From an uncultured Gemmatimonadaceae bacterium (GTDB lineage: Bacteria > Gemmatimonadota > Gemmatimonadetes > Gemmatimonadales > Gemmatimonadaceae), in the NCBI GenBank assembly GCA_963716745.1, contig OY970320.1, forward strand, positions 2,944,001 to 3,008,000: a stretch of 64,000 nucleotides of DNA, given 5' to 3'. The translations under genes and the position numbers were made by a program. The notes under the pieces are model-generated. The model did no database searches, was not told where the DNA came from, and saw only the letters and a list, made by a program, of their open reading frames with translations. Positions 2,549 through 59,304 of the stretch are shown one piece after another (position 1 is the stretch's first letter; each line of letters opens with the position of its first letter).

Positions 2549-5436
2549 GACGTGGAAGGGCGCCCTTCGCGGCGCTGTGCTCGCTCGTGCTGTTGTGCGG
2601 CGCGGGACGCGCCGCGGCGCAGAGCGTGCCGCCCGACGGGAGCTGGCGCACGATCACGACGGCGCATTTCCGCGTGCATTTCCTGCCGCAAGTCGAAGGC
2701 CCCGCGAGGCGCGCGGCGGCGCAAGCCGAGATCGCCTACGCCAAGCTGGCGAAGCACCTCCACACGCCGCGCGGCGTCGTGGATCTCGTGATCGCCGACA
2801 ACGTGGATTTCTCGAACGGATTCACGACGGTCTTCCCCACCAATCGAATCACGATCTACGCGCTGCCCGGGCTCGACGATCCGTCGCTCGAATTCTACGA
2901 CAGCTGGTTCGAGCAGATCACGACGCACGAACTCACGCACACCTTCCAGCTCGACCGCACCGCCGGATGGTGGGCGATCGGGCAGGACATGCTCGGCCGC
3001 GCGCCGCTGCTCTTCCCGAACACGTACGAGCCGGCGTGGATGACCGAGGGGCTCGCCGTGTACTACGAGAGCGCGCTCACCGACGCGGGACGTGTGAACG
3101 GCACGATCTCCTCGATGGTGGTGCGCTCCACGGCGCAGAAGAACGCGCTGCCCTACTACGATCGCTGGAGCCTCGCGACCACGGTCTATCCGTACGGCAA
3201 CACCTCGTACGATTACGGCGCGGAGTTCCTGGACTATCTCGCGACCGTACACGGCGAGCCAACGCTCGGCGATCTCGTGGAGCGTGCGAGCCGCCGGCCC
3301 ATCCCGTTCACCTACAATGGCGCCGCGAGCGGCGCGTTCGGCATCTCGTTCGCCGACGCGTGGCAGCGGTGGCGCGATTCGCTCGCGCTCTCGGTGCACG
3401 GTCTTCCGCCCGCGGCCGAGCCGATGCCGGGATGGCACGATCTCACGCACACCGGCTACGACGCGGTCCGCCCACGCTGGGCGGACGATGGCACGCTTCT
3501 CTACGCCGGCAATCTCGGCAAGAGCTTCACCGCGGCGTATTCGCTCGACACCACGGGCGCCGAGCGGAGCGAAGGGCGCCGCAACAGCTTCGACACGCAG
3601 GTGCCGATGTCCAACGGCGGGATTTTGTATGCGCAGCTCGAGTACACCGATCCATATCACGTGCGATCCGATCTCTACACGGAACTGGCCGGCAAGAAGA
3701 CCAAGCTCACGCACGGTGCGCGTCTCGCGCAGCCGGACGCGCGCGGCGACGGCGCGATCGTGGCGGTGCGCTACGAACCCGCGACCACCACGCTCGTACG
3801 CGTGAGCGCCGACGGCCGCGCGATCACGCCGCTCACCGGCACCGCGGCCGACACCGAATGGGCCGAGCCGCGCTGGTCACCGAACGGCGCGCTCATCGCG
3901 GCCACGCGCTGGACGCGCGGCGCCTACGCCGACGTCGTGGTGATGGACACGACCGGACGGATCGTGCGGGTGTTCACGCACGACCGCGCATTCGACGCGT
4001 CGCCGTCGTGGAGCCCCGACGGGCGCGCGGTGCTCTTCACGTCCAACCGCACCGGCGCGCAGAACGTGTACATCGCGCTCGTCGACGGCGATGCGCCGCC
4101 GCGCCGCATCGGGAACGCGAGCTCGGGCATGTTCTATCCATCGCTCAGTGCCGACGGTCGCACGCTCGCCGCCGTGCGCTACGACGCCGACGGTGACCAT
4201 GTGGGCGTCGCGCCGTTCGACACGAGCGGCGCCGCGCCCACGCCGCTCGACAGCTCGTTCCTGGCGCCGCCCTACGCTGCGGCGGCGAGCGACACGTCGG
4301 CGTCTACGTCGTACTCACCCTTCCCCGCGCTCTGGCCGCATTACTGGCTGCCTGCGATCGGGTTCAACACGCTGAACGGCATCACGCTCGGCGCGTACAC
4401 GAGTGGCAGCGACGTGATCGGGCGCCATGTCTACTATGTGCAGGCGCTGTTCGACCCGTGGCACTACCAGAATGTGTTCGATGCGGCGTACGCCTACGCG
4501 GGGCTGGGCCAGCCGGTCATGTCGCTGGAAGCGACGCAATACTGGGATCAGTTCAACGATCCGATCGGACCATCGGGCGGAACGCTGTTCCGGCGCACGC
4601 GCGCGATGAACCTCACGGCCACCGTGCGGCGCCTGCGCGTGTATTCCACGGCGTTCGCGTCGCTCTCCGCCGGGATCCTGCAGAAGCACTACACGACCAC
4701 GCCCGACTCGCTGCTGCCTCTGCTGCCGGCCTACTATTCGAGCGATCCCGATTTCTGGTCCGTCGGCGCGGCAGCGGGCTACGCGAACGCGGCGACGCCG
4801 CCCACCGGTGTGTCGCCCGAGGACGGGATCAGCACGAACGTCGCCGCGACGTTCCGCTGGCTCGACGGCGAGAGCGCTCTCTGGTCGCAGAGCCTGCAGG
4901 CATCGATGAGCGGCTACGTCGCGCTCGCGCACGGCAGCTTCGCGCATCCGGTGCTTCGCGCGCGCGTGGCGGCCGGGGCCACGAGCGGCAGCAATCCGAT
5001 GCTCTTCGATCTGGGCGGCGTGAGCGGCGGAGGCGTGGTGCTGCTGCCCGGCGTAACGCTCGGCTCGCCGCGCTACTTTCCGGTGCGTGGCTTCACGGCG
5101 GGCGTGGAGAGTGGCGAGCGGATCGTGTCGGGCACGGTGGAGCTCGTGCTGCCGCTGGCCGGCATCCATCACGGCTTTGGATTCTTCCCGATCTTCCTCG
5201 ATCGCAGCAGCCTGACACTATTCAGCGACGCCGGCAGCTCCTGGGCGCCCGGCGAATCCGGCGGCGCGAGCACACGACCCATCGCCTCCGCCGGCGCCGA
5301 GGTCACGATCTTCGTGGGCGTACCATATGATGCGGCGTACGCGCTCCGGTTCGGCGTGGCAGTTCCCTACGAGAACCAGAGCGGCGTCGCGACGCCCGCC
5401 GTGACGTTCTATTTCACGTTGGGAGTGGGCAACTAA
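2545..5436 (+). CDS. Exported protein: zincin-like HExxH domain, TolB/PD40 beta-propeller and C-terminal beta-barrel
   Basis: Signal peptide ending AAAQ; THELTH...WMTEG; repeats AEPRWSPNG and ASPSWSPDG; barrel-like C-terminus. ATGA overlap with the amidase stop. Confidence 0.75.
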   Translation: MRRGRAPFAALCSLVLLCGAGRAAAQSVPPDGSWRTITTAHFRVHFLPQVEGPARRAAAQAEIAYAKLAKHLHTPRGVVDLVIADNVDFSNGFTTVFPTNRITIYALPGLDDPSLEFYDSWFEQITTHELTHTFQLDRTAGWWAIGQDMLGRAPLLFPNTYEPAWMTEGLAVYYESALTDAGRVNGTISSMVVRSTAQKNALPYYDRWSLATTVYPYGNTSYDYGAEFLDYLATVHGEPTLGDLVERASRRPIPFTYNGAASGAFGISFADAWQRWRDSLALSVHGLPPAAEPMPGWHDLTHTGYDAVRPRWADDGTLLYAGNLGKSFTAAYSLDTTGAERSEGRRNSFDTQVPMSNGGILYAQLEYTDPYHVRSDLYTELAGKKTKLTHGARLAQPDARGDGAIVAVRYEPATTTLVRVSADGRAITPLTGTAADTEWAEPRWSPNGALIAATRWTRGAYADVVVMDTTGRIVRVFTHDRAFDASPSWSPDGRAVLFTSNRTGAQNVYIALVDGDAPPRRIGNASSGMFYPSLSADGRTLAAVRYDADGDHVGVAPFDTSGAAPTPLDSSFLAPPYAAAASDTSASTSYSPFPALWPHYWLPAIGFNTLNGITLGAYTSGSDVIGRHVYYVQALFDPWHYQNVFDAAYAYAGLGQPVMSLEATQYWDQFNDPIGPSGGTLFRRTRAMNLTATVRRLRVYSTAFASLSAGILQKHYTTTPDSLLPLLPAYYSSDPDFWSVGAAAGYANAATPPTGVSPEDGISTNVAATFRWLDGESALWSQSLQASMSGYVALAHGSFAHPVLRARVAAGATSGSNPMLFDLGGVSGGGVVLLPGVTLGSPRYFPVRGFTAGVESGERIVSGTVELVLPLAGIHHGFGFFPIFLDRSSLTLFSDAGSSWAPGESGGASTRPIASAGAEVTIFVGVPYDAAYALRFGVAVPYENQSGVATPAVTFYFTLGVGN

Positions 5437-5557
5437 CAGCTTGACAGGATGAACATGATTGGCTTGATGGACGTCGCCCCTCGAGGATCTCGGCGCCGTA
5501 ACCCCAAAGCAGTCATCCTGTTAATCATGCCCTTAATCATGTAATCCTGTCAAAGCT
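5437..5557. repeat. Palindromic element family A, copy 1
   Basis: TTGACAGGATGAACATGATT ... AATCATGTAATCCTGTCAA inverted arms, homologous to 12364-12461. Confidence 0.85.
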
Positions 5558-5664
5558 CTTGTTTTTTTAACGTGTTTCCAGGCAAGTCGCCTCGCGAATC
5601 ACGTCATTTTGCACCGAAAGGTCGGTCATGATTTCGTCGCTTCTCGATACGAATCCCGTGCATC

Positions 5665-5720
5665 GTTACATGTGTAACCTATTGTAACCTTGTCATTTGT
5701 CTGGTAGTCGTTATTATGCT
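5665..5720 (+). promoter_or_regulatory. Candidate sigma70 promoter for nrdJ with upstream operator-like palindrome
   Basis: TTGTCA (5690-5695), 16 nt spacer, TATTAT (5712-5717) in an AT-rich patch. GTTACA-TG-TGTAAC at 5665-5678 and a further TGTAAC at 5683-5688. Confidence 0.45.
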
Positions 5721-5958
5721 TCCCTCCGGCTTCGGCCGGGCTTTTCTGCGGCGCGCGCACCGAAGGGTGTACGGCGCCGCGGTGTCGTTCGAGGGTCTCC
5801 GGATCGGCAGGTCTTGCGGTAACGCATTGCCGTTGAGTCGTTTACCGTCGTATTTGTGCGGATACACGAGCCGCATTTCGTGAATCGCGCTTGTGTGTCT
5901 CGCATTGCCGTTCTAAGTCTCAAGCAGCATTCGCTTCATCTTCAAGGAGAGCTCCGAC

Positions 5959-8448: not shown

Positions 8449-8473
8449 GCTAAGTCGCAGTGCCGGATCGACG

Positions 8474-8510: not shown

Positions 8511-8540
8511 CTCGGTGCGCCATTCTCGATCCGAGCGCTC

Positions 8541-8775
8541 AGGAAGGATCACGCGAACTGCTTCAACGCGGATTATGCGGAAGCGGCGAATGATGCGCGG
8601 ATCGTTCTAGGCGCGATGAGAGCTATTCGCAGCCGGTCGAGTTCGTGTTGTTGTTGTTAACAGCAAAAGACAAGACGCTGACTGGGTGCATGATAGCTGT
8701 GACGCTCCGCGGAGTAATCCGCCAGATTCGCTGACTCCGCATGATCCGCGTCGAAGCAGTTCCGTGATCCTTTCT
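8541..8775. repeat. Palindromic MITE-like element family B
   Basis: About 60 nt imperfect terminal inverted arms: AGGAAGGATCACGCGAACTGCTTCAACGCGGATTATGCGG versus CCGCATGATCCGCGTCGAAGCAGTTCCGTGATCCTTTCT. Confidence 0.8.
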
Positions 8776-8871: not shown

Positions 8872-9258
8872 ATGGCACGATATCGATTTGATCGAGGACG
8901 GATCACCACAGTGTCATCGGCGCGTTCTACGAGGTCTATAGGATTCTTGGATTCGGCTTCCTTGAGCACATCTACGCTGCGGCGCTCGAGCGTGAATTGC
9001 TGTCGCGCGGCCACCACGTGAGCCGAGAGGTCGGTGTCGGATCAGTACAAGGACGAGGAGATCGGCCGTTCAGCGCATGGACATGGTGGTGGATCAGCGA
9101 GTCATCGTCGAGATCAAGGCGACATCGAACTGCTGCACGCCAGCGCCGAAGCGGCAGCTCTTCAACTATCTTCGTGCGACCGACTGGACGGTTGGCCTTC
9201 TGCTGCACTTCGGGCTGAGGCGCGGAGTTCCGGCGCCTGGTCTCGACGCGGCCGGTGA
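8872..9258 (+). pseudogene. GxxExxY protein (PD-(D/E)XK nuclease-like), broken by several frameshifts (decay or assembly indels)
   Basis: Fragments in different frames: VIGAFYEVYRILGFGFLEHIYAAALERELLSRG (GFLEHIY at 8955-8975), QYKDEEIG, RMDMVVDQRVIVEIKA, QLFNYLRATDWTVGLLLHFG. Confidence 0.85.
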
Positions 9259-12361: not shown

Positions 12362-12363
12362 AC

Positions 12364-12461
12364 AACTGCTTGGACAGGATTAACATGATTGGCATGATGA
12401 ACGGCGTGCGCGCGCCGATGCCGTTCATCATGCCAATCATGTTAATCCTGTCAATGCAGTT
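12364..12461. repeat. Palindromic element family A, copy 2
   Basis: Near-perfect hairpin AACTGCTTGGACAGGATTAACATGATTGGCATGATGAACGGC ... GCCGTTCATCATGCCAATCATGTTAATCCTGTCAATGCAGTT. Confidence 0.9.
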
Positions 12462-17759: not shown

Positions 17760-18002
17760 GCGGGTGCTCTCCAGGCTCGTGAGTGGGGGCCACCGGCGAG
17801 GGCGGGCCAGACTTCTAAACTACTGGGCGTGGTACCCCACGCAACGGGCGCGGTGCCTCGAACGCGTAGGTCTTAGGTACAACGACCTGCGCTCGAAACA
17901 AACGTGCTGAGTCGTAACGCCGGGCGCCGGCCACTCGTCGAGTACTGAAGGGGGAAACCCCCGTTCCGCACCAGCGGAGCGCTCCCGCACGTCGGCCCAC
18001 GA

Positions 18003-21700: not shown

Positions 21701-22096
21701 ATGAAGCTGCGCGACAAGGCGGAGATCGTGGTCGCCTGCGCGCTGTTGCCGCCCGCTCTGGAACTGCTGCCAGCCGCGCGCGTCGTCGCGTGGCTCCGCC
21801 GCGTGCGCCCGCGCCGCCGGGAGGCACTCTCGGGTGAACGTTATGCGGAGGCGGTGGACCGGGTACTGAACCGCGCGCCATCGATCTGGCGGAACACATG
21901 CTTGCGGCGCGCGGTGGTACTCGAGTTCCTGCTGCGACGGAGCGGGAGGGAGGCGGAAGTGGTGATCGGAGTGCGCCGGGCGGCGAGTGGGAGCATCGAG
22001 GCGCATGCGTGGCTGAAGTGCGAGGGAGTGGAGCCGTACTTGGATCCGGAAGATCTCGAGACTTTCGTGCGGATGACGGCACCACGAACTACGTGA
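21701..22096 (+). CDS. Lasso-peptide B2-like transglutaminase/cysteine protease (orphan)
   Basis: TCLRRAVVL, VVIGVR and IEAHAWL motifs typical of Transglut_core3. Confidence 0.8.
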   Translation: MKLRDKAEIVVACALLPPALELLPAARVVAWLRRVRPRRREALSGERYAEAVDRVLNRAPSIWRNTCLRRAVVLEFLLRRSGREAEVVIGVRRAASGSIEAHAWLKCEGVEPYLDPEDLETFVRMTAPRTT

Positions 22097-22280
22097 GTAC
22101 CGAGTCGTGCGTGTTCGACCACTGACCACGTGAGTACCGAGTCGTGCGTGTTCGACCACCAACGGCGTGAGTACCGAGTCGTGCGTGACTCGGTACTCAC
22201 GCATTAAGTGGTCCAACACGCACGACTCGGTACGAACGCATCAAGTGGTCGAACACGCACGACTCGGCACTCACGTAGTT
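22087..22280. repeat. Family C composite palindrome (GTGAGTACCGAGTCGTGCGT units), cluster 1
   Basis: Three forward units at 22093, 22130 and 22167 (37-nt period), then three inverted units; ends AACTACGTGAGT...ACTCACGTAGTT. Confidence 0.9.
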
Positions 22281-22294
22281 AGTGGTTAGAAAGT

Positions 22295-33387: not shown

Positions 33388-34410
33388 ATGGCGATCGATC
33401 TACGGAGTGATACGGTCACGCGACCCACGGCGGCGATGCGGCGCGCGATGGCCGACGCCGAGGTGGGCGACGATGTGCTCGATGGCGATCCCACCACCAA
33501 GCGGCTCGAGGCGCGCGTGGCCGCGATGCTGGGCAAGGAGGCGGCCCTCTTCTTCCCGAGCGGGACGATGGCGAACCAGACCGCGGTGTGGCTGCACACG
33601 CGGCCCGGTACCGAGATCCTGCTCGACCAGGGCGCGCACATCGTACACTACGAACTCGCCGGTGCGGCGGCGCTCTCCGGCGCGCAGCTGCGCACCGTGC
33701 CGTGCGATGGCCCGGTGATGACGGCGTCGGCGCTCGCCGCCGCGATGCGTCCGGCGTCCCCGCACGTGCCCGAGGCGAGCCTCGTGTGCGCCGAGAACAC
33801 GCACAACGGCGCCGGCGGCATGATCACACCGCTGGCGGATCTCAGAGCGATCGCGGAGACGGCGCGCTCGCGCGGACTGCCGCTGCATCTCGACGGCGCG
33901 CGATTGTGGAACGCGAGCGCGGCGAGCGGCACTCCGCTCGCGGAGTTCGCGGCATGCGCGGACACCGTGATGGTATCGTTCTCCAAGGGACTCGGTTGCC
34001 CGGTGGGCGCGGTGCTCGCGGGATCGAGAGCGATGATGGAGCGCGGCTGGTTCGTGCGGAAACGGTTCGGCGGCGGGATGAGACAATCGGGCGTGCTCGC
34101 CGCGGCCGCGGTGTACGCGCTGGACCATCATCTCGCGCGCCTCAGCGAGGATCACGCGCGCGCGAAGGCGTTCGCGAAGCGGGTGGACGGCGCGGGAGGG
34201 GCGAAAGTGGTGCCACCGGACACGAACATCGTGATGCTGGATCTGCCGGCGAAGCTTGACGCAAATGTGATCGTGAGGACGGCGGGGGAGCGAGGGGTGC
34301 GACTCACGCCGTGGTCGAAGACGCGGATCCGGGCGGTGGTGCATTTGGACATCGACGATGCGGCGATCGCGGAGGCGGGGGGGATTCTCGCCGAACTACT
34401 CACGGCGTGA
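33388..34410 (+). CDS. ltaE: Low-specificity L-threonine aldolase
   Basis: [38 protein letters not shown] and GGGMRQ motifs. Confidence 0.93.
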
Positions 34411-34679
34411 GTCGTGAGTCGCACCCCAGACCCCCGTACGTCGTACCCCGAACACCGTGAGTACCGAGTCGTGCGTCGTACTGACTGTGAGGCGTGACTC
34501 GCAACCCAAACTCCGTGAGTCGTGAGTTAACTCACGAGGTAAGCGTTGCGAGTCACGGGCTCCGGGCCGCGACTCACGGTGGTCGGGTCGCGGTCCGGGC
34601 CGCGACTCACGGTGGTCGGGTCGCGACGCACGCACCACAATCTGTACGACGCACGACTCGGTACTCACGGCGTTCGGGT
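34407..34679. repeat. Family C composite palindrome, cluster 2
   Basis: GTGAGTACCGAGTCGTGCGT at 34457, its inverse at 34649-34668, many GTGAGTC/GACTCAC units and an internal 33-nt-period tandem duplication. Confidence 0.85.
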
Positions 34680-34714
34680 TTGCCTGAGACCTCCCATGCG
34701 CTAGATTATTAACT

Positions 34715-34810
34715 GCTCCAGGTCCCGGAGGGCGCCAGTGCGTCAACCCCGCCAGGACCGAGAGGTAGCAACGGTACACGTTGCGAACGTCGCTTCGGAC
34801 GGCCTGGAGC
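34715..34810 (+). ncRNA. ffs: Signal recognition particle RNA (4.5S, small bacterial type)
   Basis: Closing stem GCTCCAGG...CCTGGAGC; domain IV motif CCAGG-ACC-GAGA-GGT-AGCA; canonical position upstream of dnaX. Confidence 0.9.
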
Positions 34811-34874
34811 ACTGCGTGGGGATCCGAAGGCCGCAAGTGGCGGTCGCGGTCCCGCGCTCGACTCGACGCGAACG

Positions 34875-37570: not shown

Positions 37571-37728
37571 CCGCCGAACGCCGTGAGTACCGAGTCGTGC
37601 GTCAGACTCACGATTCACGGTTGTCGGGGTTCCAAGAACGCCGTACAATCAGTTCGACGCACGACTCGGTACTCACGGATTTCGGGGTACGACGGACGGT
37701 GTTCGTGTCGCGACTCACGGCGTTCGGG
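37571..37728. repeat. Family C composite palindrome, cluster 3
   Basis: CCGAACGCCGTGAGTACCGAGTCGTGCGT ... ACGCACGACTCGGTACTCACGG ... GACTCACGGCGTTCGG. Confidence 0.85.
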
Positions 37729-37810
37729 TCCAGGCCGTTCACCGTGGCTTAAGACCTTAGATAATCGTCATTCTGTGAGCGCTCAGACCCTCTCGAGGAT
37801 CACTTTTTAG

Positions 37811-39709: not shown

Positions 39710-40594
39710 ATGGCCGACTTCGGCGTCCAGCCGCCCGGCTTCCGGCTGCCGCCGGAAACGCATGTCGGACGCGTGCGGCTGCAGGTGGGCGACCTCGACC
39801 GCTCCCTCGCCTACTACGTGGGTCTGCTCGGATTCCGGGTGCTGGAGCGCGCGCCGGGCCGCGCCGAACTCGGAGTGGACCGTCCGCTCATCGAGCTGCA
39901 CGAACTGAAAGGTGCGCGCCGCGTGCCGCGCCGCGGGCGGCATGGGCTGTTCCACTTCGCCATCCTGCTGCCCGACCGCGCGTCGCTCGGCCGCATCTAC
40001 GCGCGGCTCGAGTCGGCGGGGATCCAAGTGGGATCGGCGGACCATGCCGTGAGCGAGGCGCTGTACCTCACCGATCCCGACGGACTCGGCATCGAGATCT
40101 ACGCCGACCGTCCGCGTTCGGAATGGGTGCGCCGCGGCGCCGAGCTGCACATGGTGAGCGAGCCTTTGGACGTCGGTTCGCTCACGCGCGCCGCGGGGAA
40201 GGAGCCGTGGACCGGAATGCCCAAGGGCACCGTGATCGGCCACGCGCATCTGCACGTCGAGAGTCTGGAGAAATCGGTCGCGTTCTATCACAACGCGCTC
40301 GGACTCGATCTCATCGTGTGGAGCTATCCCGGCGCGATCTTCCTGTCGGCGGGCGGGTACCACCACCACCTCGGAGCGAACACATGGGCGGGTGCCGGCG
40401 CGACGGCCCCGGAGGCGGATGAGGCGCGCTTGATCGATTGGGAGCTGCTGCTGCCGGGTTCCTTGTCATCTGTTGTTGCGAGCTTGGAGGGTGCGGGGCA
40501 CGGGGTGGAGCGTCTGCCTGACGGCGCAGTGCGAGTCTTGGATCCATCGGGGACGGCGGTCCGTATTGTGGGGGACGGGACAGGGCAGACTTAG
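39710..40594 (+). CDS. VOC family protein (CatE-like catechol 2,3-dioxygenase)
   Basis: GLFHFAILLP, DHAVSEALYLTDPDG.GIEIYADRP and GGYHHHLGANTW motifs. Confidence 0.88.
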   Translation: MADFGVQPPGFRLPPETHVGRVRLQVGDLDRSLAYYVGLLGFRVLERAPGRAELGVDRPLIELHELKGARRVPRRGRHGLFHFAILLPDRASLGRIYARLESAGIQVGSADHAVSEALYLTDPDGLGIEIYADRPRSEWVRRGAELHMVSEPLDVGSLTRAAGKEPWTGMPKGTVIGHAHLHVESLEKSVAFYHNALGLDLIVWSYPGAIFLSAGGYHHHLGANTWAGAGATAPEADEARLIDWELLLPGSLSSVVASLEGAGHGVERLPDGAVRVLDPSGTAVRIVGDGTGQT

Positions 40595-40618
40595 ACATTA
40601 GACTGAGACGTTAGACTG
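40587..40618. repeat. Family F short TAGAC tandem repeat
   Basis: AGACTTAGACATTAGACTGAGACGTTAGACTG overlapping the VOC gene stop. Confidence 0.55.
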
Positions 40619-40641
40619 CTCTTCCTCCGACCTTACTCGCC

Positions 40642-41598
40642 ATGCGCATTGGGATCGCGGCCGGACTGACTCTCTTCTCTTCGGCTCTCGCCGCGCAGGC
40701 GCCGGTTTGCACGGCGAAGGCGTCGGCGGTGGCGGGTGGGGATACAGCGGTCAGGGTCGCGTCGCTCATGGCGGCGGGGCATGCGGCGTTCGCAAAGCAG
40801 GAATTCCCGGTGGCCGTGGATTCGTTCGAAGCGGCGACCAAGCTCGATCCGAACTACGCGCCGGCGTTCATCTGGTACGGGAACGCGCTCGCGAACGTCG
40901 CCGGGAACGCGTCGACGTTCAGGCAGGCATTCATGGCGCCCAAGATGAAGCACGCATGGGAGCGCGCGGTGCAGCTCGACAGCTGCAACGTGGAGGCGCG
41001 CGAGAGCCTCATCCAGTTCTACGAGCAGGCGCCCGGCATCATGGGCGGCAGCATGGACAAGGCGAAGGCGATGGCGGCCGAGATCAAGGCGATCGATCCG
41101 TACCGCGGCGAGATCCAATCGGGCAACATCGCGCAGCGCGAGAAGAACCTCGCGGCCGCGGCGGCGTCCTTCGAGGCCGCGTCCAAGATGCCCGCCGATT
41201 CGAACGGCCGCGCATGGGGCAGCTGGGTGGTGGTGCTGGAGGAGCAGGAGAACTTCGCCGGCGCGTTCGCCGCGATCGACGCGCGACTCGCCGAGCGGCC
41301 CGGCGATCTGGTGGCGCTCACGCTGCTCGGTCGCGCGGCGGCAATGTCCGGGCAGCGCTTGGCGGAGGGCGCGACCGCGTTGAAGACAGTGATCGCCGAT
41401 TCCGCCGCCGCCGCGTCGCCGCGAACGGGATTCCGATTGTCACCCGCCGGCTTGCACTACCGGCTGGCGATGATCCTCGCGCTGCAGGCGGACACCGTGG
41501 CGGCGCTCGCGGAGTACAAGGCGGCGCTGTCGTTGAATCCGAAGGACAAGAGCATCAAAGAGGCGGCGGAGCAATTCGAGAAGGCGGCGAAACACTAA
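40642..41598 (+). CDS. Exported tetratricopeptide-repeat protein
   Basis: Signal peptide; repeated A..LDP TPR caps; APGIMGGS motif. Confidence 0.8.
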   Translation: MRIGIAAGLTLFSSALAAQAPVCTAKASAVAGGDTAVRVASLMAAGHAAFAKQEFPVAVDSFEAATKLDPNYAPAFIWYGNALANVAGNASTFRQAFMAPKMKHAWERAVQLDSCNVEARESLIQFYEQAPGIMGGSMDKAKAMAAEIKAIDPYRGEIQSGNIAQREKNLAAAAASFEAASKMPADSNGRAWGSWVVVLEEQENFAGAFAAIDARLAERPGDLVALTLLGRAAAMSGQRLAEGATALKTVIADSAAAASPRTGFRLSPAGLHYRLAMILALQADTVAALAEYKAALSLNPKDKSIKEAAEQFEKAAKH

Positions 41599-41691
41599 CT
41601 ACAGACGGCTAGGCGCTAGACCTAGACGTTAGCAACGCACACCGTCACGCTTCTAGTCGTCTACGGTCTGGCGTCGTAGCGTCGTGCAGTT
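41597..41691. repeat. Family F degenerate palindrome between convergent genes
   Basis: AACTACAGACGGCTAGGCGCTAGACCTAGACG ... CTAGTCGTCTACGGTCTGGCGTCGTAG...GCAGTT; same AACTACAGAC start as 10033. Confidence 0.6.
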
Positions 41692-42491: not shown

Positions 42492-42625
42492 CCCAGGCCC
42501 CGTGCGTTCGAGTGCCAATGAACCGTACGTCGCAACGGCGTGCGTCGCAACCCGAACGCCGCTTCGAGGTTCGACTCACGGAGTTCGGGGTTCCAGATGC
42601 ACTCGTAGGTGGCGAGATTCATAGA

Positions 42626-45633: not shown

Positions 45634-45772
45634 GAACCGCTGACGGCGGGGTTGGTACCGCTGACGGCGCGTAGCGTTGGCGTTGGGTACTGCGAAACCT
45701 GAGTAGGGCGCGCCTCCCAACGCCAACGCTACGTACGCCCCTCGCGGTACCGGCCCCGCCGTCTGCGGTACG
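45634..45772 (+). repeat. Family D ~140-nt hairpin element, copy 1
   Basis: GAACCGCTGACGGCGGGGTTGGTACCGC...GCGTTGGCGTTGGG...CCCAACGCCAACGC...GCGGTACC..CCCCGCC..GCGGTAC. Confidence 0.9.
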
Positions 45773-45812
45773 CGGTTCTATCGGAGCTAGTCTGGTGCGA
45801 TAGATTGTAGCC

Positions 45813-46866: not shown

Positions 46867-49224
46867 ATGACCGTCGCCGAGATCTTCGAGACGATGACCT
46901 ACGGCCCCGCGCCGGAGAGCGCGAAGCCCGCGCTCGACTGGATCGCGGCGCACGGCGGCGAGTTCGGTCATTTCATCGGCGGGAAGTTCACGCGGGCCAA
47001 AGGCGGCAAGCTTTTCGCGACGATGAATCCCGCGACCGGCAAACCGCTCGCGCGCATCGCGCAGGGCACCGCGAGCGACGTGAACGCCGCGGTGAAGGCG
47101 GCTCGCGCGGCGTATCCCGCGTGGAGCAAGCTGCCGGGGCACGAGCGCGCGCGGCATCTGTACGCGCTCGCGCGCGCGGTGCAGAAGAATTCGCGGTTGC
47201 TCGCGGTGCTGGAGAGCCTCGACAACGGCAAGCCGATCCGCGAGACGCGCGACTTGGACATTCCACTCGTGGCCCGGCACTTCTACCACCACGCGGGCTG
47301 GGCGCAGCTCATGGAGAGCGAGTTCGCCGGCTACGGCTCGCTCGGCGTGGTGGGGCAGATCATCCCGTGGAATTTCCCGCTGCTCATGCTCGCGTGGAAG
47401 GTCGCGCCGGCGCTCGCGGCGGGGAACACGAGCGTGCTGAAGCCGGCGGAATTCACGCCGCTCACCGCGCTGTGCTTCGCCGAGCTCGCGGCGCGCGCGG
47501 GGTTGCCGCCGGGCGTGCTCAACATCGTGACCGGCGACGGTGAGACCGGCGCCGCGCTGGTTGACGCGGATGTCGACAAGATCGCGTTCACGGGTTCCAC
47601 CGAGGTGGGCCGCGTGATCCGGCGCGCGACCGCTGGGTCGGGCAAGAAGCTCTCGCTCGAGCTGGGCGGCAAGAGTCCGTTCATCGTGTTCGAGGATGCG
47701 GATCTCGATAGCGTCGTCGAGGGCGTGGTGGATGCGATCTGGTTCAACCAGGGGCAGGTGTGCTGCGCCGGCTCGCGGCTGCTCGTGCAAGAAGGGATCG
47801 CCGAGCGTCTCACCGACAAGCTGCGCGCGCGCATGGAGAAACTCCGCGTCGGCTCGCCGCTGGACAAAGCGGTGGACATGGGCGCGATCGTGGCGCCGGT
47901 GCAGTTGGAGCGCATTCGCACTCTGGTCGCGAAGGGCATCGAGGAAGGCGCCGAGATGTGGCAGCCGAGCTGGGCGGTGCCCAAGGAGGGCAGCTTCTAT
48001 CCGCCGACGCTGTTCACCGAGGTCGCGCCGAGCAGCACGATCGCGCAGGTGGAGATCTTCGGTCCCGTGCTCGTGAGCATGACGTTCCGCACGCCCGAGG
48101 AAGCGGTCGCCCTCGCGAACAACACGCCATTCGGCCTCGCGTCCAGCGTGTGGACCGAGAACATCAATCTCGCGCTCGACATCGCGCCGAAGATCAAAGC
48201 GGGTGTCGTCTGGGTGAACTGCACGAACATGTTCGACGCTGCTGCGGGATTCGGTGGGTATCGGGAGTCGGGATTCGGGCGGGAAGGTGGGCGCGAGGGG
48301 ATGTACGAATACGTGAAGCAAGAGCGGGCTGTCGGCCGTCGGCTGTCGCCTGCCAAACGCCTGCCTGCGACAGCCGACAGCCGACAGCCCGCCGTCGACC
48401 GCACTCCGAAGCTCTTCATCGGCGGCAAGCAGGCTCGCCCGGACTCGGGTTATTCGCGGATCGTGAAGGGCGCGGGCGGTCGCGCGATCGGCGAAGTCGG
48501 AGAGGGCAACCGGAAGGATATTCGGAACGCCGTGGAGGCCGCGCATGCGGCCAGCGGTGCGTGGGCGCGCGCCACCGGGCATGCGCGGGCGCAGATCTTG
48601 TACTACATCGCCGAGAATCTCTCCGTGCGCGCAGGAGAATTCGCAGCGCGGATCGAGCAGATGACGGGGAAGGGCGGGGGCGCGGCCGAGGTCGAGGCGA
48701 GCATTGCGCGGCTGTTCACGTATGCCGCGTGGGCCGACAAGTGGGATGGCGCCGTGCATTCCGTACCGATCCGCGGCGTGGCGATGGCGATGAACGAGCC
48801 GATCGGCGTGATCGGTGTTGGCGCGCCGGAGCTCCCTCCCCTCCTGGGCTTCATCTCTCTCGTTGCGCCGCTCGTGGCGACCGGCAACACGGTGGTCGCC
48901 GTGCCGAGCGAGGAATATCCGCTGGCCGCGACGGACTTCTATTCGGTGCTAGAGACCAGCGACGTGCCGGCGGGCGTCATTAACATCGTGACCGGCGCGA
49001 AGGACGCGCTGAGTTTCGTGCTGGCCGAGCACGATGATGTGGACGGCGTGTGGTACCGGGGAACTCGCGATGGCGCGACCGCGATCGAGAAGGCGAGCGC
49101 ATCGAACATGAAACGCACGTCTTGCGAATGGAAGCCGCGCGACTGGACGAACGACGGCGAAGGGCGGGAGTTCCTGCGAAGTGCGACGCAGGTGAAGAAT
49201 ATTTGGATTCCGTATGGGGAGTAA
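46867..49224 (+). CDS. Aldehyde dehydrogenase with duplicated second domain (ALDH16-like)
   Basis: IIPWNFP, FTGSTEVG, LELGGKSP, NQGQVCCAG and EIFGPV motifs; second degenerate ALDH domain after a linker. Confidence 0.92.
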   Translation: MTVAEIFETMTYGPAPESAKPALDWIAAHGGEFGHFIGGKFTRAKGGKLFATMNPATGKPLARIAQGTASDVNAAVKAARAAYPAWSKLPGHERARHLYALARAVQKNSRLLAVLESLDNGKPIRETRDLDIPLVARHFYHHAGWAQLMESEFAGYGSLGVVGQIIPWNFPLLMLAWKVAPALAAGNTSVLKPAEFTPLTALCFAELAARAGLPPGVLNIVTGDGETGAALVDADVDKIAFTGSTEVGRVIRRATAGSGKKLSLELGGKSPFIVFEDADLDSVVEGVVDAIWFNQGQVCCAGSRLLVQEGIAERLTDKLRARMEKLRVGSPLDKAVDMGAIVAPVQLERIRTLVAKGIEEGAEMWQPSWAVPKEGSFYPPTLFTEVAPSSTIAQVEIFGPVLVSMTFRTPEEAVALANNTPFGLASSVWTENINLALDIAPKIKAGVVWVNCTNMFDAAAGFGGYRESGFGREGGREGMYEYVKQERAVGRRLSPAKRLPATADSRQPAVDRTPKLFIGGKQARPDSGYSRIVKGAGGRAIGEVGEGNRKDIRNAVEAAHAASGAWARATGHARAQILYYIAENLSVRAGEFAARIEQMTGKGGGAAEVEASIARLFTYAAWADKWDGAVHSVPIRGVAMAMNEPIGVIGVGAPELPPLLGFISLVAPLVATGNTVVAVPSEEYPLAATDFYSVLETSDVPAGVINIVTGAKDALSFVLAEHDDVDGVWYRGTRDGATAIEKASASNMKRTSCEWKPRDWTNDGEGREFLRSATQVKNIWIPYGE
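48324..48392. repeat. Family G heptamer palindrome (GCTGTCG/CGACAGC) in frame in the ALDH linker
   Basis: GCGGGCTGTCGGCCGTCGGCTGTCGC ... GCGACAGCCGACAGCCGACAGCCCGC. Confidence 0.8.
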
Positions 49225-49226: not shown

Positions 49227-49341
49227 AACGACGCGGGACTCGGGACTCGGGACTCGCCGCGGGATTCGAAATGCGCGACAGAGGCTCCCCGGCTGTTCAC
49301 GAGTCCCGCGGCGAGTCCCGAGTCCCGAATCCCGCGTCGTT
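49227..49341. repeat. Family E palindrome, intergenic copy between convergent genes
   Basis: AACGACGCGGGACTCGGGACTCGGGACTCGCCGCGGGA ... TCCCGCGGCGAGTCCCGAGTCCCGAATCCCGCGTCGTT. Confidence 0.9.
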
Positions 49342-50636
49342 CAGTGGATCTCCAGCACCATCACCACCGGCCGATGCAGCGCCGCCCCCGGCGTCACGGT
49401 GCCGTCCGGCGCGAAGCGATCCCAGCCCGATGTCGCGATGAAGTAGAACTTGTCGCCCACCATTACACCGTGATTCGGCTCGTTCAGCACGGGGAGATTC
49501 GCGGCAAGCGTCGACCACTTCTCGATCTTGGTCATTCCGCGATCGAGATCCAGCCGGATCACGCGGTCGAGCGGGAGTCCATTCTGGATCGCGATCAATG
49601 AATGCCCCGCCATCGCCATGCCGTCGATGCCGTTGATCGCGGCGTGCGCATCGTTCTCCAGCCACGTCACCTTGCCGGTCGCGCGATCCACGACGGCGAT
49701 CCCCTTGATATAGTCGGCCACGAAGAGCCGTTTGCCGTCCGCCGCGGCCACGGGCTGCTGTGGGTTCGGGAAGATCCCCGGCGGCACGAGCTGCTCCAAC
49801 GAATCGCGCCCCTCGCGGATCACGTACACGCCGCCGCCGGTCGCGTCGCTCGTGAACACGTCGCCGTTCTTCGCGACGGTGAGATCGCCGAACACATGAT
49901 CGGCGCTGTCGTCCGCCAGATCATAGCTGCGCATGAGCAACCCAGTTGTGAGATTCAGACGCAGCACGGCGCTGCTGCCCGAATCGCCCGGCGCCAGCGC
50001 GAACGCCTCGGGCATGCCGGCGGTGGTGGCCCAGAGCGAGTGCCGCGCAGCATCCACGTCGAGGCCCATCATCGCCATCACGCTGTCGCGCGCCGGCGGA
50101 ACGAAGTCGCTCCACTGCCCGCCTTGCCGCACGATGACCTTCCGTTCGCGAATGCTGCTCAAGAAGAAGCGTCGCGTCGTCGAGTCATACGCAATGTCCT
50201 CGGCGACGAACTCGCTGTCGGGCACCGTGAACGCTGTCACCGGATGGCCCACGGCTTCGCGATTCTTCGCGATGCGCGCGAGCAACTCTTTCCACCCGGG
50301 AGCGCCGCGCACCGGTGCGAGCAATGAATCGGCATCCATATCCTTCACGAGCCCCGTGGCTGCGTACATCTTGAGCCACTTCATCGCGCCCGCCGTGTCA
50401 TGCATCTGCGCATCCGCGCGTGCCTGCGCGATCATGGTACTCGGAAAACCGTTCAGTTCCTTGTAGAGCACCTCGGCGTAGTGCCGGTACGCTTTCCAGT
50501 CGCCGTGCACGCGCGCCGAGTCTCCCGCCGCGCTTCGCTCGCGCCAGGTGGAATCCCCCTGCGCGCTCGCTGATACAACCGCGAGCGCAACACCGAAGGC
50601 GACAGCCGACAGCCGACAGCCGACACTCGAGATCAT
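49341..50636 (-). CDS. Exported beta-propeller protein (SMP-30/gluconolactonase/NHL-like)
   Basis: Start at MISSVG with RBS GGAGG and ATGA overlap; EDIAYD, FGDLTV..NGDVF and GIDGM blades. Confidence 0.75.
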   Translation of the reverse strand: MISSVGCRLSAVAFGVALAVVSASAQGDSTWRERSAAGDSARVHGDWKAYRHYAEVLYKELNGFPSTMIAQARADAQMHDTAGAMKWLKMYAATGLVKDMDADSLLAPVRGAPGWKELLARIAKNREAVGHPVTAFTVPDSEFVAEDIAYDSTTRRFFLSSIRERKVIVRQGGQWSDFVPPARDSVMAMMGLDVDAARHSLWATTAGMPEAFALAPGDSGSSAVLRLNLTTGLLMRSYDLADDSADHVFGDLTVAKNGDVFTSDATGGGVYVIREGRDSLEQLVPPGIFPNPQQPVAAADGKRLFVADYIKGIAVVDRATGKVTWLENDAHAAINGIDGMAMAGHSLIAIQNGLPLDRVIRLDLDRGMTKIEKWSTLAANLPVLNEPNHGVMVGDKFYFIATSGWDRFAPDGTVTPGAALHRPVVMVLEIH

Positions 50637-53661: not shown

Positions 53662-53663
53662 GA

Positions 53664-54827: not shown

Positions 54828-54859
54828 GGTTCAAATATACTCTCGAATGGACGTTCCTT

Positions 54860-55001
54860 GAACCGCTGACGGCGGGGTTGGTACCGCCGGGAGCGTGTGT
54901 GGCGTTGGCGTTGGGAACCAGCCAACTCTACCTAGGCCGCGGCTCCCAACGCCACCGCCACACACGCCTTCAGCGGTACCAACCCCGCCGCCCGCGGTAC
55001 G
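54860..55001 (+). repeat. Family D element, copy 2
   Basis: Same arms as 45634-45772. Confidence 0.9.
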
Positions 55002-55012
55002 AGTCCCGCCGT

Positions 55013-56286
55013 TCATTGCTTGTACACCACCCCGTCCTTCATGACGAAGCTTCACATTTTCCATCACCGTGATATCCGCCAACGGATCGCCGCGATACCG
55101 CAATGATATCCGCGTATTTCCCGGCCTTGATCGATCCGATCTTCGCCGATTGCCCGAGCAGATCCGCGGCACCTACCGTCGCCGCTTGCAGCGAGGCCAG
55201 CGGCGTCATGCCGAACTTCACCATGTAGGAGAATTCCTTCGCGTTCGTGCCGAAGGGGCACACGGAGATATCGGTGCCGAAGGCGATCTTCACGCCCTCC
55301 TTCACCGCGCGCTTGAAATTGTCGATGGCGATCTGATTCAGCCGGTCGGAATGCTCGAGGAAATCCGCGGGATAGCCGGCGGCGGAGTCGATGCAGCCGA
55401 TGGTCTCGAGCGTCGGCACGAGGTAGGTGCCGTGCTGCTTCATGAGCTGGATGCCTTCTTCGTCCAGATAGCTCCCGTGCTCGATCGAATTCACGCCGGC
55501 GCGCACCGCCGCCTTGATGCCGGCGGCGTTGTGCGCATGCGCCGCGACGCGGAGCCCGAAATTGTGCGCCTCGTCCACGGCGGCGACGAGCTCCTCGTCG
55601 GTGAACTCGCGCGCGTTCGCGTTGCTGTTGTGCGTGAGCACGGCGCCGGTGGAGAGCACTTTGATGAGATCCACACCCTGGCCCGCGAGCATGCGCACCC
55701 GCTGTCGCACCTCCCACGGACTGTTGGCCTCGCCGTAGTGCAGATCCCATGGGAGCCCGATGTCCGCCGCCATGCCGGTGACCGCGCCCGCGCCGCCCGT
55801 GATCGTGATGTACGCGCCCGCGACGAACATCCGCGGCCCGGGGATGTCCCCGCGATTGATCGCATCGCGCATTGCGACATCGACCAGCGCACGGTACGTG
55901 CCCACGTCGCGCACGGTGGTGAAGCCCGCCATGAGCACGATCCGCGGATTGGGGATCGAGCGGAACGCTTCCTCGGCGGCAGTGCGCCGGAGTTCATCGA
56001 GCGGCTCGGGATCGTTCGCCGGGCCCACCAGATGCGTATGCATGTCGAGCAGGCCGGGGAGCACGGTCATCGCCGAGAGATCGATGACCTTCGCGTCCTT
56101 CGGGATCGCGACCGACGGGCCGACCTCGGCGATCATCCCATTCTTCACGAGGATGATCTGGTTCGAGAGCATCTTGCCGGCATCGGCGTCGAAAAACTTT
56201 CCGGCTTTGATGGCGGTCGTCTGGGACGCGAGCGACGATCCCGCGACCACGAGCGCCGCGGTGGCGCATCGAATGGAGAGTCTCAT
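55013..56286 (-). CDS. Exported amidohydrolase (Xaa-Pro dipeptidase-like); two apparent +1 indels near the 3' end
   Basis: PGLLDMHTH, GFTTVRD, AAHAH, SIEHG and FGTD motifs; tail KYADIIAVS/GDPLADITVMENVK/FVMKDGVVYKQ is split over three frames. Confidence 0.85.
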
Positions 56287-56288
56287 GG

Positions 56289-57563: not shown

Positions 57564-57592
57564 CGAGTGATCTCCGATAAGAGGCGGGATTG

Positions 57593-57732
57593 GAACCGCG
57601 AAGAGCGGGGCTGGTACCGCCGACGGCGTCTGTGGCGTTGGCGTTGGGCACTGCGAGTTCCAGGGAAGCCGCAGTGCCCAACGCCAACGCCATCGCGCCG
57701 TCAGCGGTACCAACCCCGCCGTCAGCGGTACG
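57593..57732 (+). repeat. Family D element, copy 3
   Basis: Same arms as 45634-45772. Confidence 0.9.
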
Positions 57733-57735
57733 CTG

Positions 57736-59304
57736 TTACTGCGTGCACCGAAACTGCACCGCCATCCTCGCCCCGTCGAGATGCACCGGATCTCCCAGCT
57801 TCACGGGACTCGCCGCGTTCGCGCGGATCGCGGCGATCGCGGCGCCCGCTTCGTCCAGCGTGTCGATCACCACCATCCACCCGGCGCCCGCCGCGCAGGC
57901 GCTCATCGTCACCCGTTCCTCGGCCGATCGCAGTGCGGGAGCGCCGCGCGTTTCGCGCAGATCGGGGGAGAGCAGGGGCGCCGCCTTCAATCCTGTGGCC
58001 TGCGCCACAAGTGGATCATCGGCGGTGAGGATCACGGCGTCCCGCGGCAATGTGGCGGCCCACGTCACCACCGGCGCGTACGCCTCGGCCTCGTGGCGCT
58101 GCGGCACGATCCAGCCGTCGTTGCGGTAGCCGCGAATGTTGAGGCGCGCGCAGGTCGCCACGGGCAGGAGCAGCAACACTGCGGCGATCGCGGCGCGCGG
58201 GACTTTCGCGACATAGCGTTCCGGCACGAGCGCCGCGAGCGTACACGCGCCGCCCACCAGCAGGATCATCAGGAGCGGCAGGATCCCCCAGAGGAACCGG
58301 TCCGGGCTGATGGGCCAAATGAGCACTACGGCCAGGTAGCCCGTCGTTCCGAACAGGGCCACGGAACGCCAACCGCGCACGTGCCAGAGTCCCGCCGCCG
58401 TCGCGAGCAGCGCCAGCACCATGCCCGGAGCGCTCCACGCCTGGCGTCCCACGCGCAAGAGTCCGCTCACTTGGTGACCCATGAGCGCGAACAATTCGCC
58501 GATGCCGTTCACGCTCTCGCGCCACATGCCGCCGTAGCTGCCGTAGCTCCCCGTCCACGCCGCGGGGATCTCGTGCGCGTGCTGGCGCGTGAACGCCACC
58601 CACGCGAGCGTGGGGATGAGCATGAACGCCGCGAGCATCGCCTCGCGCTGGCGCACTGCGACTGGTTTTCCCGGCTCCGTCGCCATGCGCCACGCGACGG
58701 CGAGCGTTACCGGCAGCAGGATCGTGCGAGCGAGGGGCAAGAGCGCCGCGATCACCGCCGCGCCGATCGCTCGGCTCCGCGACGGTGGCGCGGCATCATC
58801 GGGCGCATCGGCGAGATCGAACGTCAGCCCCAGCAACAGCCACGAGAGCGGCTCGGAGAAGAGCGTGCCCGTCACGGCGCGCGCCGGCACCATGAGCACG
58901 GCGGCCGCAGCCAGGAGCGGCGCGCCCCATCCGAGCGAGAAGCGCCGCGCGCCCCAGCGTCCCCACGCCACGACGCTCGCCGCCGCGAGCAAGGCATTGC
59001 CGGCCTTCAGCCAAGCGATCGACCCCAACGCGGCCACCGGCGGCCGCAGGAGGCTCCACAGCGCGAGCCACGCTGGGTAGAGCGGAGGATAGTGCACCCC
59101 CGCCGGCGCGCCCGGGAGCGCGGTGTGATGGTAGCCCGCCCCGGCGAGCAGACTCTTCGCGAGATCGGCATAGATCCCGTCGTCGTAGAACACGCCCACC
59201 GGCATCGCGTCGCCGCGCGTGAGCGCGAGCACCGCCAGCGTGGCGAGCGCCGCCGCCCAGGGCGCGGCGGCGCTCAGCCGGTGTGCGGACGCGCCGCGCG
59301 TCAC
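57736..59304 (-). CDS. Polytopic membrane protein, GT-C/ArnT-like glycosyltransferase
   Basis: FYDDGIY..LAKSL, HYPPLYP, FSEPL and DRFLW motifs; many TM segments. Confidence 0.65.
   Translation of the reverse strand: MTRGASAHRLSAAAPWAAALATLAVLALTRGDAMPVGVFYDDGIYADLAKSLLAGAGYHHTALPGAPAGVHYPPLYPAWLALWSLLRPPVAALGSIAWLKAGNALLAAASVVAWGRWGARRFSLGWGAPLLAAAAVLMVPARAVTGTLFSEPLSWLLLGLTFDLADAPDDAAPPSRSRAIGAAVIAALLPLARTILLPVTLAVAWRMATEPGKPVAVRQREAMLAAFMLIPTLAWVAFTRQHAHEIPAAWTGSYGSYGGMWRESVNGIGELFALMGHQVSGLLRVGRQAWSAPGMVLALLATAAGLWHVRGWRSVALFGTTGYLAVVLIWPISPDRFLWGILPLLMILLVGGACTLAALVPERYVAKVPRAAIAAVLLLLPVATCARLNIRGYRNDGWIVPQRHEAEAYAPVVTWAATLPRDAVILTADDPLVAQATGLKAAPLLSPDLRETRGAPALRSAEERVTMSACAAGAGWMVVIDTLDEAGAAIAAIRANAASPVKLGDPVHLDGARMAVQFRCTQ

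Follow-up and report, generated by a model that had tools for sequence, protein, structure and literature searches.

Hairpin families with a shared terminal tag at the gene ends of a Gemmatimonadaceae genome

The genome of an uncultured Gemmatimonadaceae bacterium (G000) carries palindromic elements at many gene ends, and a 64-kb stretch of it (positions 2944001-3008000 of contig C1, hereafter the window; positions are window coordinates unless marked G000) was the starting point of this study. A reading of the sequence alone had noticed that the palindromes of the window have unrelated interiors, share AAC...GTT termini and cluster at the rare TAA stop codons, and had proposed a common mechanism, guided by folded single-stranded DNA, which targets or creates TAAC at gene ends. 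The question is thus what unites these elements and how they came to lie on stop codons. The answer that we favour, and to which we would give an even chance, is that the palindromes are one genus-specific superfamily of hairpin cassettes of the intervening sequence (IVS) type which share a paired terminal tag and spread mainly over resident hairpins.

The element ends quoted in the sequence-only reading were all found in place (12364, inside the 8541 element, 10033, 22087, 41597 and 49227), and in its family D the left end reads AACCGC and the right end GCGGTA, with GCGGTT, GCTGTT or GCCGTT a few bases further out. Its manual count of nine TAA stops, seven of them at elements, was reproduced as well: five overlap the tag (5436, 10034, 10155, 41598 and 57736) and two are at a distance of 3 nucleotides (nt; 12361 and 49224). 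Our own gene caller found ten TAA stops among 53 genes in the window, the tenth being that of a weak 70-aa open reading frame (ORF) in the broken GxxExxY gene listed below.

A paired tag at the ends of nine hairpin families

G000 consists of one contig of 3.29 Mb with 65-70% G+C. Genes were called with our own script, which takes stop-to-stop ORFs, scores them by codon log-odds trained on long ORFs with high GC3 and selects greedily; this gave 3157 genes covering 86% of G000, with 1882 TGA, 876 TAG and 399 TAA stops. Self-BLAST of the 1807 intergenic stretches revealed 569 intergenic repeat regions, which amount to 67 kb or 2% of G000, and 380 of 543 merged regions are clear hairpins. Clustering of the repeat regions yielded approximately 13 families with at least eight hairpin ends each; family borders were taken from this BLAST clustering and hairpin ends are accurate to a few bases. 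The hairpins measure 60-270 nt and their arms are arrays of direct repeats, built from short tandem units that are specific for the family (GGGA(A/C)GC heptamers, GGCTGTC heptamers, GAC-N-TAGAC units, CCGGGAACCG units, a 37-nt unit and others). Folding as single-stranded DNA was predicted for six elements and was far better than that of shuffled sequences in five of them (z = -5.1 to -13.6), with near-continuous stems in the predicted folds. The repeat regions are scattered across G000 at gene ends and form no array.

Nine families are bounded by a paired tag, 5'-AAC-N-(G/A)-C ... G-(C/T)-N-GTT-3' (hereafter AACNRC). In end alignments of families 0.0, 1, 2, 0.1, 4, 0.2 and 0.4, conservation between copies begins exactly at AAC-N-(G/A)-C, and in the predicted folds the tag pairs with its partner at the base of the stem. 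Within -10 to +8 of the end, AACNRC was found in the nine families at 45/106, 61/106, 27/56, 29/44, 64/94, 30/84, 20/64, 26/52 and 11/44 ends, that is at 25-68% of the ends compared with approximately 3% expected from its genome frequency of 1.74 per kb. It is rare at the ends of families 5 (2/36), 0.5 (1/16) and 6 (2/20). An AAC starting within -3 to +6 was present at 300 of 760 hairpin ends compared with 79 of 760 control windows placed 33-45 nt outside, and a family-blind scan for long hairpins in 480 kb detected the tag at 32 of 74 ends, whereas each of five control motifs with a similar composition was there at 1-7 of 74. The genome-wide census and the end alignments thus confirm that unrelated families have one terminus in common. 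Of the untagged families, family 5 is a G+C-rich repeat of approximately 150 nt in 23 regions (for example G000 C1:554988-555402) with neither the AAC tag nor an associated gene, and family 0.5 consists of GCATCGT heptamer hairpins in 18 regions.

The tag also occurs inside the arms, where 251 copies in outer polarity and 62 in reverse polarity were counted in 40.2 kb (6.2 and 1.5 per kb, respectively). Since inner tags recur in outer polarity, the large hairpins look like nested AAC...GTT modules, with the tag marking the inner modules as well. The surroundings of the tag were analysed with 114 doubly tagged hairpins. Flanking direct repeats of 2-8 nt were no commoner there than in shuffled pairings, and a pairing of 4 bp outside AAC/GTT was seen in 3 of the 114 (1.1 expected). 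GTT is followed by C more often than by any other base (44%) and not by a T-run, and at ends remote from stops a T precedes AAC in 16%, which is no excess.

Stop codons and the turnover of occupied sites

Repeats are present in 138 of 301 convergent spacers (46%), in 84 of 301 divergent ones (28%) and in 295 of 2082 tandem ones (14%). In tandem spacers the repeat is a median 2 nt away from the stop compared with 72 nt from the next start, and is nearer to the stop in 249 cases and nearer to the start in 44 (n = 293). Some hairpins lie inside ORFs, and few stops lie inside hairpins. The preference for convergent spacers and the hugging of stops would suit RNA or DNA structures that the host selects at gene ends, for instance terminators lacking a U-tract, stabilisers of mRNA 3' ends or nuclease processing sites, whose base and flush position would be kept by function. 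The strong folding points in the same direction, as does the conservation of occupancy across species (see below), with the sequence free to change; furthermore, a role as RNA elements downstream of genes is also assumed for repetitive extragenic palindromes (REPs) in the consulted part of PMC3733652. However, divergent spacers and even ORFs are occupied too, C rather than a run of T follows GTT, and selection on the stem base would not require AAC-N-R-C in nine families, nor conservation that starts exactly there. In addition, multi-copy families with gene-bearing copies are a signature of copying, and function does not explain where the copies come from. Host selection is, in our view, a rather improbable account of these hairpins.

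Stop codon statistics were calculated for the 2685 genes with a score of at least 30 (1613 TGA, 712 TAG and 360 TAA). A repeat starts at most 12 nt from the stop in 126 of 360 genes ending in TAA, 107 of 712 ending in TAG and 166 of 1613 ending in TGA, and the test of TAA against the other stops, as suggested for the TAA association, gave an odds ratio of 4.0 (p = 2e-25). If only spacers that measure 100 nt or more are counted, the figures become 103/188, 89/280 and 125/488 (odds ratio 3.1, p = 8e-12), and the TAA excess is present in convergent as well as in tandem contexts. Because the excess survives the controls for spacer length and orientation, the link to TAA is not explained by operon-terminal position.

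The excess of TAA arises since the first A's of the tag double as the last bases of the stop (T-AAC, TG-AAC). Among 328 tagged ends, 38 have the tag at offset 1 from the stop, all of them TAA-C, and 32 at offset 2 (28 TGA-AC and 4 TAA-AC); three are flush with the stop (offset 3), most later offsets hold 2-6 ends each, offset 8 holds 13, and 187 ends have no facing stop nearby. Next to repeat-free stops, C follows 48.3% of TAA, AC follows 7.3% of TGA and AAC follows 0.5% of TAG. The observed overlaps of tag and stop, 38/28/2 for TAA/TGA/TAG, fit the stop contexts that can host an AAC (expected 40.1/27.1/0.8, p = 0.40) and are at odds with plain stop usage (expected 9.1/40.9/18, p = 1e-24). A collapse of spacers by deletion was also considered; it would make flush TAG-AAC junctions common, only 2 of which were found, and is rated low. 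In G000, 35% of the TAA stops abut a repeat, which implies that selfish repeats can systematically shape the stop codon usage of a genome.

To follow the sites through the genus, G000 was compared with its congeners G002 and G004 (480 kb each) and, at window sites, with G005. The window is syntenic with all three at approximately 92% (G002), 91% (G004) and 80% (G005) identity, and none of the four genomes has an empty spacer at the 15 window sites, although the occupant is often another family. The repeat sites of G000 are occupied by the same family at 38 of 54 sites in G002 and 30 of 48 in G004, by a different family (less than 50% alignable at the orthologous site) at 15 of 54 and 17 of 48, and are empty or nearly so at 1 of 54 and 1 of 48. 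Repeat-free spacers of G000, on the other hand, are longer by at least 50 nt in only 3 of 162 cases in G002 and 3 of 157 in G004, and turnover therefore exceeds gain (Fisher test, p = 8e-8 and p = 1e-9, respectively). Two gain candidates at short spacers turned out to be one gene indel and one clean hairpin gain. The comparison of filled with empty sites in sister genomes that had been suggested gave only two near-empty sites among 102 site comparisons, which did not define a target.

The stop codons take part in this turnover. The stop had switched type while staying at the same codon in 13 of 45 repeat-abutting genes in G002 and 15 of 36 in G004, compared with 13 of 308 and 14 of 300 other genes, so that a switch of stop type is 7-9 times more frequent where the stop abuts a repeat. 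As to the proposal that TAAC is targeted or created, the far more frequent rewriting of abutting stops speaks for creation, but TAA itself is not special, as TGA-AC overlaps occur in proportion. The fit to stop contexts favours AAC as a target and the rewriting of stops favours import of AAC. At five sites G000 has family 2 where both G002 and G004 have 'CCCGAAC'-type hairpins. This indicates that family 2 spread recently by replacement.

Replacement of this kind might also proceed without a dedicated enzyme, if hairpins that stall replication or are cut by general nucleases were overwritten with another hairpin by repair or template switching, with tag and stop (T-A/G-A-A-C) serving as microhomology; the tag would then be common since only families that share it can overwrite residents. 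This would account for the replacement at occupied sites with almost no new sites, for stops rewritten at the junction, for ragged replacement boundaries and for a junction overlap that tracks the number of shared A's (TAA-C 38, TGA-AC 28, TAG-AAC 2), and it agrees with the lack of target duplications and with the fact that no dedicated mobiliser was found. However, events as frequent as these would have to rely on a very short microhomology (3-6 bp), and the strict polarity of inner tags would be left unexplained, as would the finding, described next, that every tagged family and no untagged one has a gene-bearing copy. We consider this enzyme-free route unlikely.

Genes carried by the hairpins and enzymes sought near them

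G000 contains seven matches to PF05635, the four-helix-bundle family named after the 23S rRNA IVS, and one intact (G000 1094715-1095191, minus strand) and one broken gene for a GxxExxY nuclease (PF13366, PDDEXK_3). Four of the four-helix-bundle proteins are intact. Six of the four-helix-bundle proteins pass the NCBIfam cut-off of TIGR02436, three have weak similarity to Avd, and the intact nuclease passes that of TIGR04256 (GxxExxY PD-(D/E)XK). All seven PF05635 loci and the intact PF13366 locus lie between inverted arms (E = 1e-3 to 5e-24). The four-helix-bundle genes sit in the loops of one family each (0.0, 1, 0.2, 3, 4, 0.4 and 2) and the intact nuclease gene in the loop of family 0.3, and arms of family 0.1 flank a four-helix-bundle gene in G002 and G004; neither of the untagged families 5 and 0.5 has a four-helix-bundle or GxxExxY gene. 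The remaining copies of the gene-bearing families are without a gene, and the eight arm families comprise 26-79 repeat regions each. Thus, a TIGR02436 or TIGR04256 gene stands between inverted arms of tandem units, and gene-less hairpins of the same arm families occur elsewhere in G000, which is the organisation of an IVS-type cassette. The four-helix-bundle proteins of G000 are divergent (25-57% identity), and the element-borne genes are the sole hairpin-linked genes in this genome. At one four-helix-bundle cassette, the left arm (G000 C1:3094953-3095011) falls within the ~20 terminal codons of a 743-aa ORF that lies upstream (3092778-3095009); because of this overlap, the tail of the 743-aa protein is encoded by hairpin-arm sequence.

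The cassettes of the congeners carry the tag as well (L179-L181), and hairpin ends in general bear it at 25 of 100 positions in G002, 29 of 94 in G004 and 8 of 32 in a third congener. Beyond the genus, four-helix-bundle genes were found in 35 of 41 genomes of the order (G012 enters these order-wide tallies only, and the relatives used there are 63-89% complete). In 24 loci of other genera in the order, however, the tag was, as judged by eye, present in at most one cassette, possibly that of G016, and in 51 cassettes elsewhere it was present at 1 of 88 ends in other phyla and at 1 of 14 in other Gemmatimonadota records. Since these cassettes lack it, the tag is not dictated by the four-helix-bundle protein family, and the idea that it is a universal feature of four-helix-bundle cassettes was ruled out.

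Mobilising enzymes were also searched for. The single contig of G000 had no match to the models for RAYT (PF01797), IS110 (PF01548), TnpB (PF07282) and reverse transcriptase (PF00078), each of which matched in control genomes (PF01797 in 6 of 14). The Y2 model PF04986 had no match in G000 either, which is uninformative as its control search matched nowhere. These results bear on the possibility that the hairpins are ordinary non-autonomous transposons, i.e. REPIN/RAYT, derivatives of IS200/IS605, IS110-targeted elements or DDE-type miniature transposable elements with inverted repeats (MITEs), with a transposase that was lost or escaped detection. Like REPs, as far as the consulted part of PMC3733652 goes, the hairpins do form palindromic families of many copies located downstream of genes; the GTAG and CGTC REPs are known to have a terminal tag in common among unrelated families, and some of our tags contain GTAG (AACTAC/GTAGTT). 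Apart from the missing matches, the lack of target duplications stands against this explanation, as do a tag that is paired and not an unpaired 5' tetranucleotide and arms that are arrays of direct repeats and not small REP hairpins. We regard it as extremely unlikely.

The sequence-only reading had pointed to integrons, and an IntI-like gene was indeed found in G000 (2775564-2776508). It is broken into three pieces in three frames with an internal TGA, and the pieces sum up to ~326 bits compared with a cut-off of 265. In the integron-like locus (G000 C1:2775564-2779809) the gene is followed by small, low-scoring ORFs and four repeats of ~75 nt ending in CTTCGTT, which are unrelated to the hairpin families. 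If an IntI-type tyrosine recombinase acted on folded single strands, the hairpins would be attC-like sites; attC has AAC and GTT as its conserved triplets, and some copies read GTCTAAC...GTTAGGC (one example). However, AAC is the outermost element of the hairpins, pairing and conservation end at AAC/GTT, with outer pairing in 3 of 114 hairpins compared with 1.1 expected (see above), and the hairpins are dispersed at core genes without forming an array. Moreover, of 41 genomes of the order, 22 have an IntI match above the cut-off, including other genera whose cassettes are without the tag, and within the genus a match at E <= 1e-30 is confined to G005 and to the broken gene of G000; G001-G004 have none at this threshold, although G002 and G004 are rich in the tag. 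The integron-like reading is thus not upheld, and we rate it as very unlikely. As to the proposed common structure-guided insertion, the absence of target duplications fits a non-DDE mechanism. Of the enzymes that had been proposed to be flanked by the families, four-helix-bundle and GxxExxY genes are so flanked, RAYT is not found and the IntI-like gene has a repeat of its own.

In the superfamily reading, the families would be copied mainly into or over hairpins that are already present. The exchange would be directed by the hairpin structure and the tag, without target duplication and with junctions in the region of tag and stop, and selection would retain a product only if it again has a stop at the same codon. 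Candidate enzymes are the nuclease or the four-helix-bundle proteins that the elements encode, which would act in trans, or else a genus-specific host factor. The shared tag, the overlap with stops and the overwriting are new aspects; the mechanism we infer. A more specific form of it, 'hairpin homing', would be an undescribed mode of DNA mobility; it is tentative and, we think, has less than an even chance of being correct: cassettes and their gene-less derivatives would be cut at the paired tag at the base of an extruded hairpin and copied into other hairpins, overwriting them or nesting in them and rewriting the stop. If this were true, the gene-end hairpins would be a fixed set of slots for which the tagged families compete.

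Several observations weigh against the superfamily reading. No enzyme is tied to the tag, and the four-helix-bundle cassettes elsewhere have repeat-built arms but no tag. Family 2, the clearest case of recent spread, has only a 57-aa fragment as resident gene. The overlap counts also fit insertion at pre-existing AAC beside stops, so that targeting and rewriting are not separated by them. Replaced sites keep the exact tag offset at only 5 of 30 ends in G002 and 9 of 34 in G004, and the sole clean pair of a filled and an empty site involves a copy without the tag. Furthermore, the gene calls are home-made and do not come from a standard caller, the assembly may hold indel errors, and the genomes of the relatives are 63-83% complete and mutually related. 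A clean swap of interiors between fixed tags was also considered and was dropped, as too few ends of replaced sites keep the exact offset.

Elements of the window and comparison with known systems

The elements of the window are listed in Table 1 together with the state of the same sites in the congeners.

Table 1 Hairpins and hairpin-associated genes in the window
Position	Strand	Feature	Tags and stops	Fold z	Congeners and remarks
5435..5556	.	Family 0.3 hairpin, GACAGGATTAACATGAT units	AACAGC tag at 5435 overlaps TAA 5434-5436	-5.1	G002, G004: same family; G005: TGA stop, element 20 nt away
8541..8775	.	'TGTTGTTGTTAAC-centre' family hairpin (family 6 type)	Inner tags AACTGC (from 8556) and GCAGTT (to 8761)		
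8907..9217	+	Broken GxxExxY (PDDEXK_3) nuclease gene			8907-9035 38.6 bits and 9068-9217 43.5 bits in different frames; adjoins the 8541 hairpin, outside its loop
10033..10156	.	Family 0.1 hairpin, GACTTAGAC units around a G+C-rich inner hairpin	Fills convergent-gene spacer; AACTAC overlaps TAA 10032-10034, GTCGTT overlaps minus-strand TAA 10155-10157	-7.6	
12364..12461	.	Family 0.3 hairpin AACTGC..GCAGTT, 90% complementary	3 nt past TAA 12359-12361; AAC/GTT paired at stem base in fold	-13.6	G004: 34-nt remnant of another repeat, starting TAACGGC
22081..22286	.	Family 4 hairpin, 37-nt units each starting AAC	Outer tags AACTAC at 22087 and GTAGTT ending at 22280		37-nt units: 3 in G000, more on both arms in G004 (5 on left); G002, G005 differ
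34409..34680	.	Composite family 4 hairpin, 272 nt			Directly upstream of SRP RNA gene
37574..37729	.	Composite family 4 hairpin	Tags of AACGCC..GGCGTT type		G002: other family
40582..40622	.	Family 0.1 half element (one arm)			
41597..41691	.	Decayed family 0.1 hairpin AACTAC..GCAGTT	Tag overlaps TAA 41596-41598	-1.95 (weak)	G002: GGCTGTC-family hairpin behind TGA-AC
42534..42589	.	Short family 4-like hairpin AACGGC..GGAGTT			G002, G004: 195-nt nested version
45635..45777	.	Family 2 (family D) hairpin AACCGC..GCGGTT			G002: same; G004, G005: other families
49227..49341	.	Family 0.0 hairpin (GGGACTC heptamers) AACGAC..GTCGTT, 95% complementary	Convergent genes; TAA 49222-49224 3 nt before; minus-strand TGA 49341-49343 overlaps GTT	-11.1	G002, G004: GGGAAGC variant behind TGA and TAG stops
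50594..50629	.	Family 0.2 half element (GACAGCC units)			Conserved in all four congeners
54861..55013	.	Family 2 hairpin AACCGC..GCCGTT			G002, G004, G005: 'CCCGAAC'-type hairpins
57594..57737	.	Family 2 hairpin AACCGC..GCTGTT	GTT overlaps minus-strand TAA 57736-57738	-11.5	G002, G004: different family, TGA at same codon position, last two codons differ
63649..63813	.	Family 2 hairpin	Ends with GCCGTT at 63813		G002, G004, G005: other families

The additional units on both arms of the 22081 hairpin in G004 suggest that its two arms may grow or shrink together. A 1.4-kb gap at 17890-17896 was also examined as an element and rejected, as it corresponds to an ordinary gene that is present in G002, G004 and G005 and missing in G000. 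The hairpin at 34409 is followed after 37 nt by the gene for the signal recognition particle (SRP) RNA (34717-34811; Rfam, 42.5 bits), and dnaX comes next.

Two hairpins of the window are part of coding sequences. A hairpin of the GGGACTC family with 117 nt (39 codons; 36095-36211) lies in frame in dnaX (34919-36631), past the conserved N-terminal domains, and is found at the same place in G002, G004 and G005 with a changed heptamer (GGGACGC or GGGAAGC). It is flanked by GTTC...GAAC and thus by the tag in reversed order. A 69-nt hairpin of the GGCTGTC family (48324-48392) lies exactly between the two aldehyde dehydrogenase domains of a 785-aa ORF (46867-49224), whose first domain is not followed by a stop in any of four congeners. 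This hairpin thus seems to code for a linker that joins two genes which were once separate.

In the literature on the four-helix-bundle and GxxExxY families and on REP, REPIN and MITE repeats of Gemmatimonads, we found no account of a tagged hairpin system. 'Four helix bundle protein' and 'GxxExxY protein' are very widespread small families, and we know of no function for either; to our knowledge, nobody knows how rRNA intervening sequences move. Integron attC sites are palindromes, imperfect and variable in sequence, in which the triplets AAC and GTT are conserved and lie inside a 7-bp pairing RYYYAAC/GTTRRRY; fusion to a TAA stop is frequent, and the sites are exchanged as units without target duplication. 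The hairpins of G000 likewise are imperfect and variable palindromes with AAC/GTT that often lie on a TAA stop, lack target duplications and would be exchanged as units. Unlike attC, however, they have the triplets outermost, form no array and have no linked intI, and the distribution of the tag does not follow that of IntI. They also differ from MITEs of DDE transposons, as they are without a target-site duplication.

REPs offer a second comparison. The GTAG and CGTC super-families unite unrelated palindromes by a short terminal tag, and the CGTC group is without a known transposase in the consulted part of PMC3733652. Like the hairpins described here, REPs are there reported to prefer positions downstream of genes, in spacers of tandem and convergent orientation, although genes themselves also contain some copies. 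Unlike the base-paired AAC-N-R-C of G000, however, the REP tag is, by the same part of that source, unpaired and adjoins a palindrome of 20-40 nt. Nor do the G000 elements resemble REPIN/RAYT in other respects: RAYT is without a match in G000, the associated genes are those of four-helix-bundle and GxxExxY proteins, and the hairpins measure 60-270 nt and have array arms.

The closest relatives in organisation are the ORF-bearing intervening sequences of 23S rRNA in Coxiella and Leptospira (S23p ORF), which in the consulted part of PMC4990558 are regarded as selfish and as of unknown mobility. As described there, they too have a small four-helix-bundle gene (PF05635/TIGR02436) in the loop of a hairpin with terminal inverted repeats. 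Measured against that description, the elements of G000 differ in that they lie between protein genes, are mostly gene-less and belong to many families, and in that their arms are arrays of short repeats with a shared AAC/GTT tag that overlaps stops. The genus thus offers an unusually constrained natural experiment, with one six-base tag, many gene-bearing families, filled slots whose content is swapped between species only ~8% apart, and a read-out in the stop codons. For biochemistry, the tagged hairpin is a concrete substrate and the replacement of a slot's content without target duplication is a concrete product.

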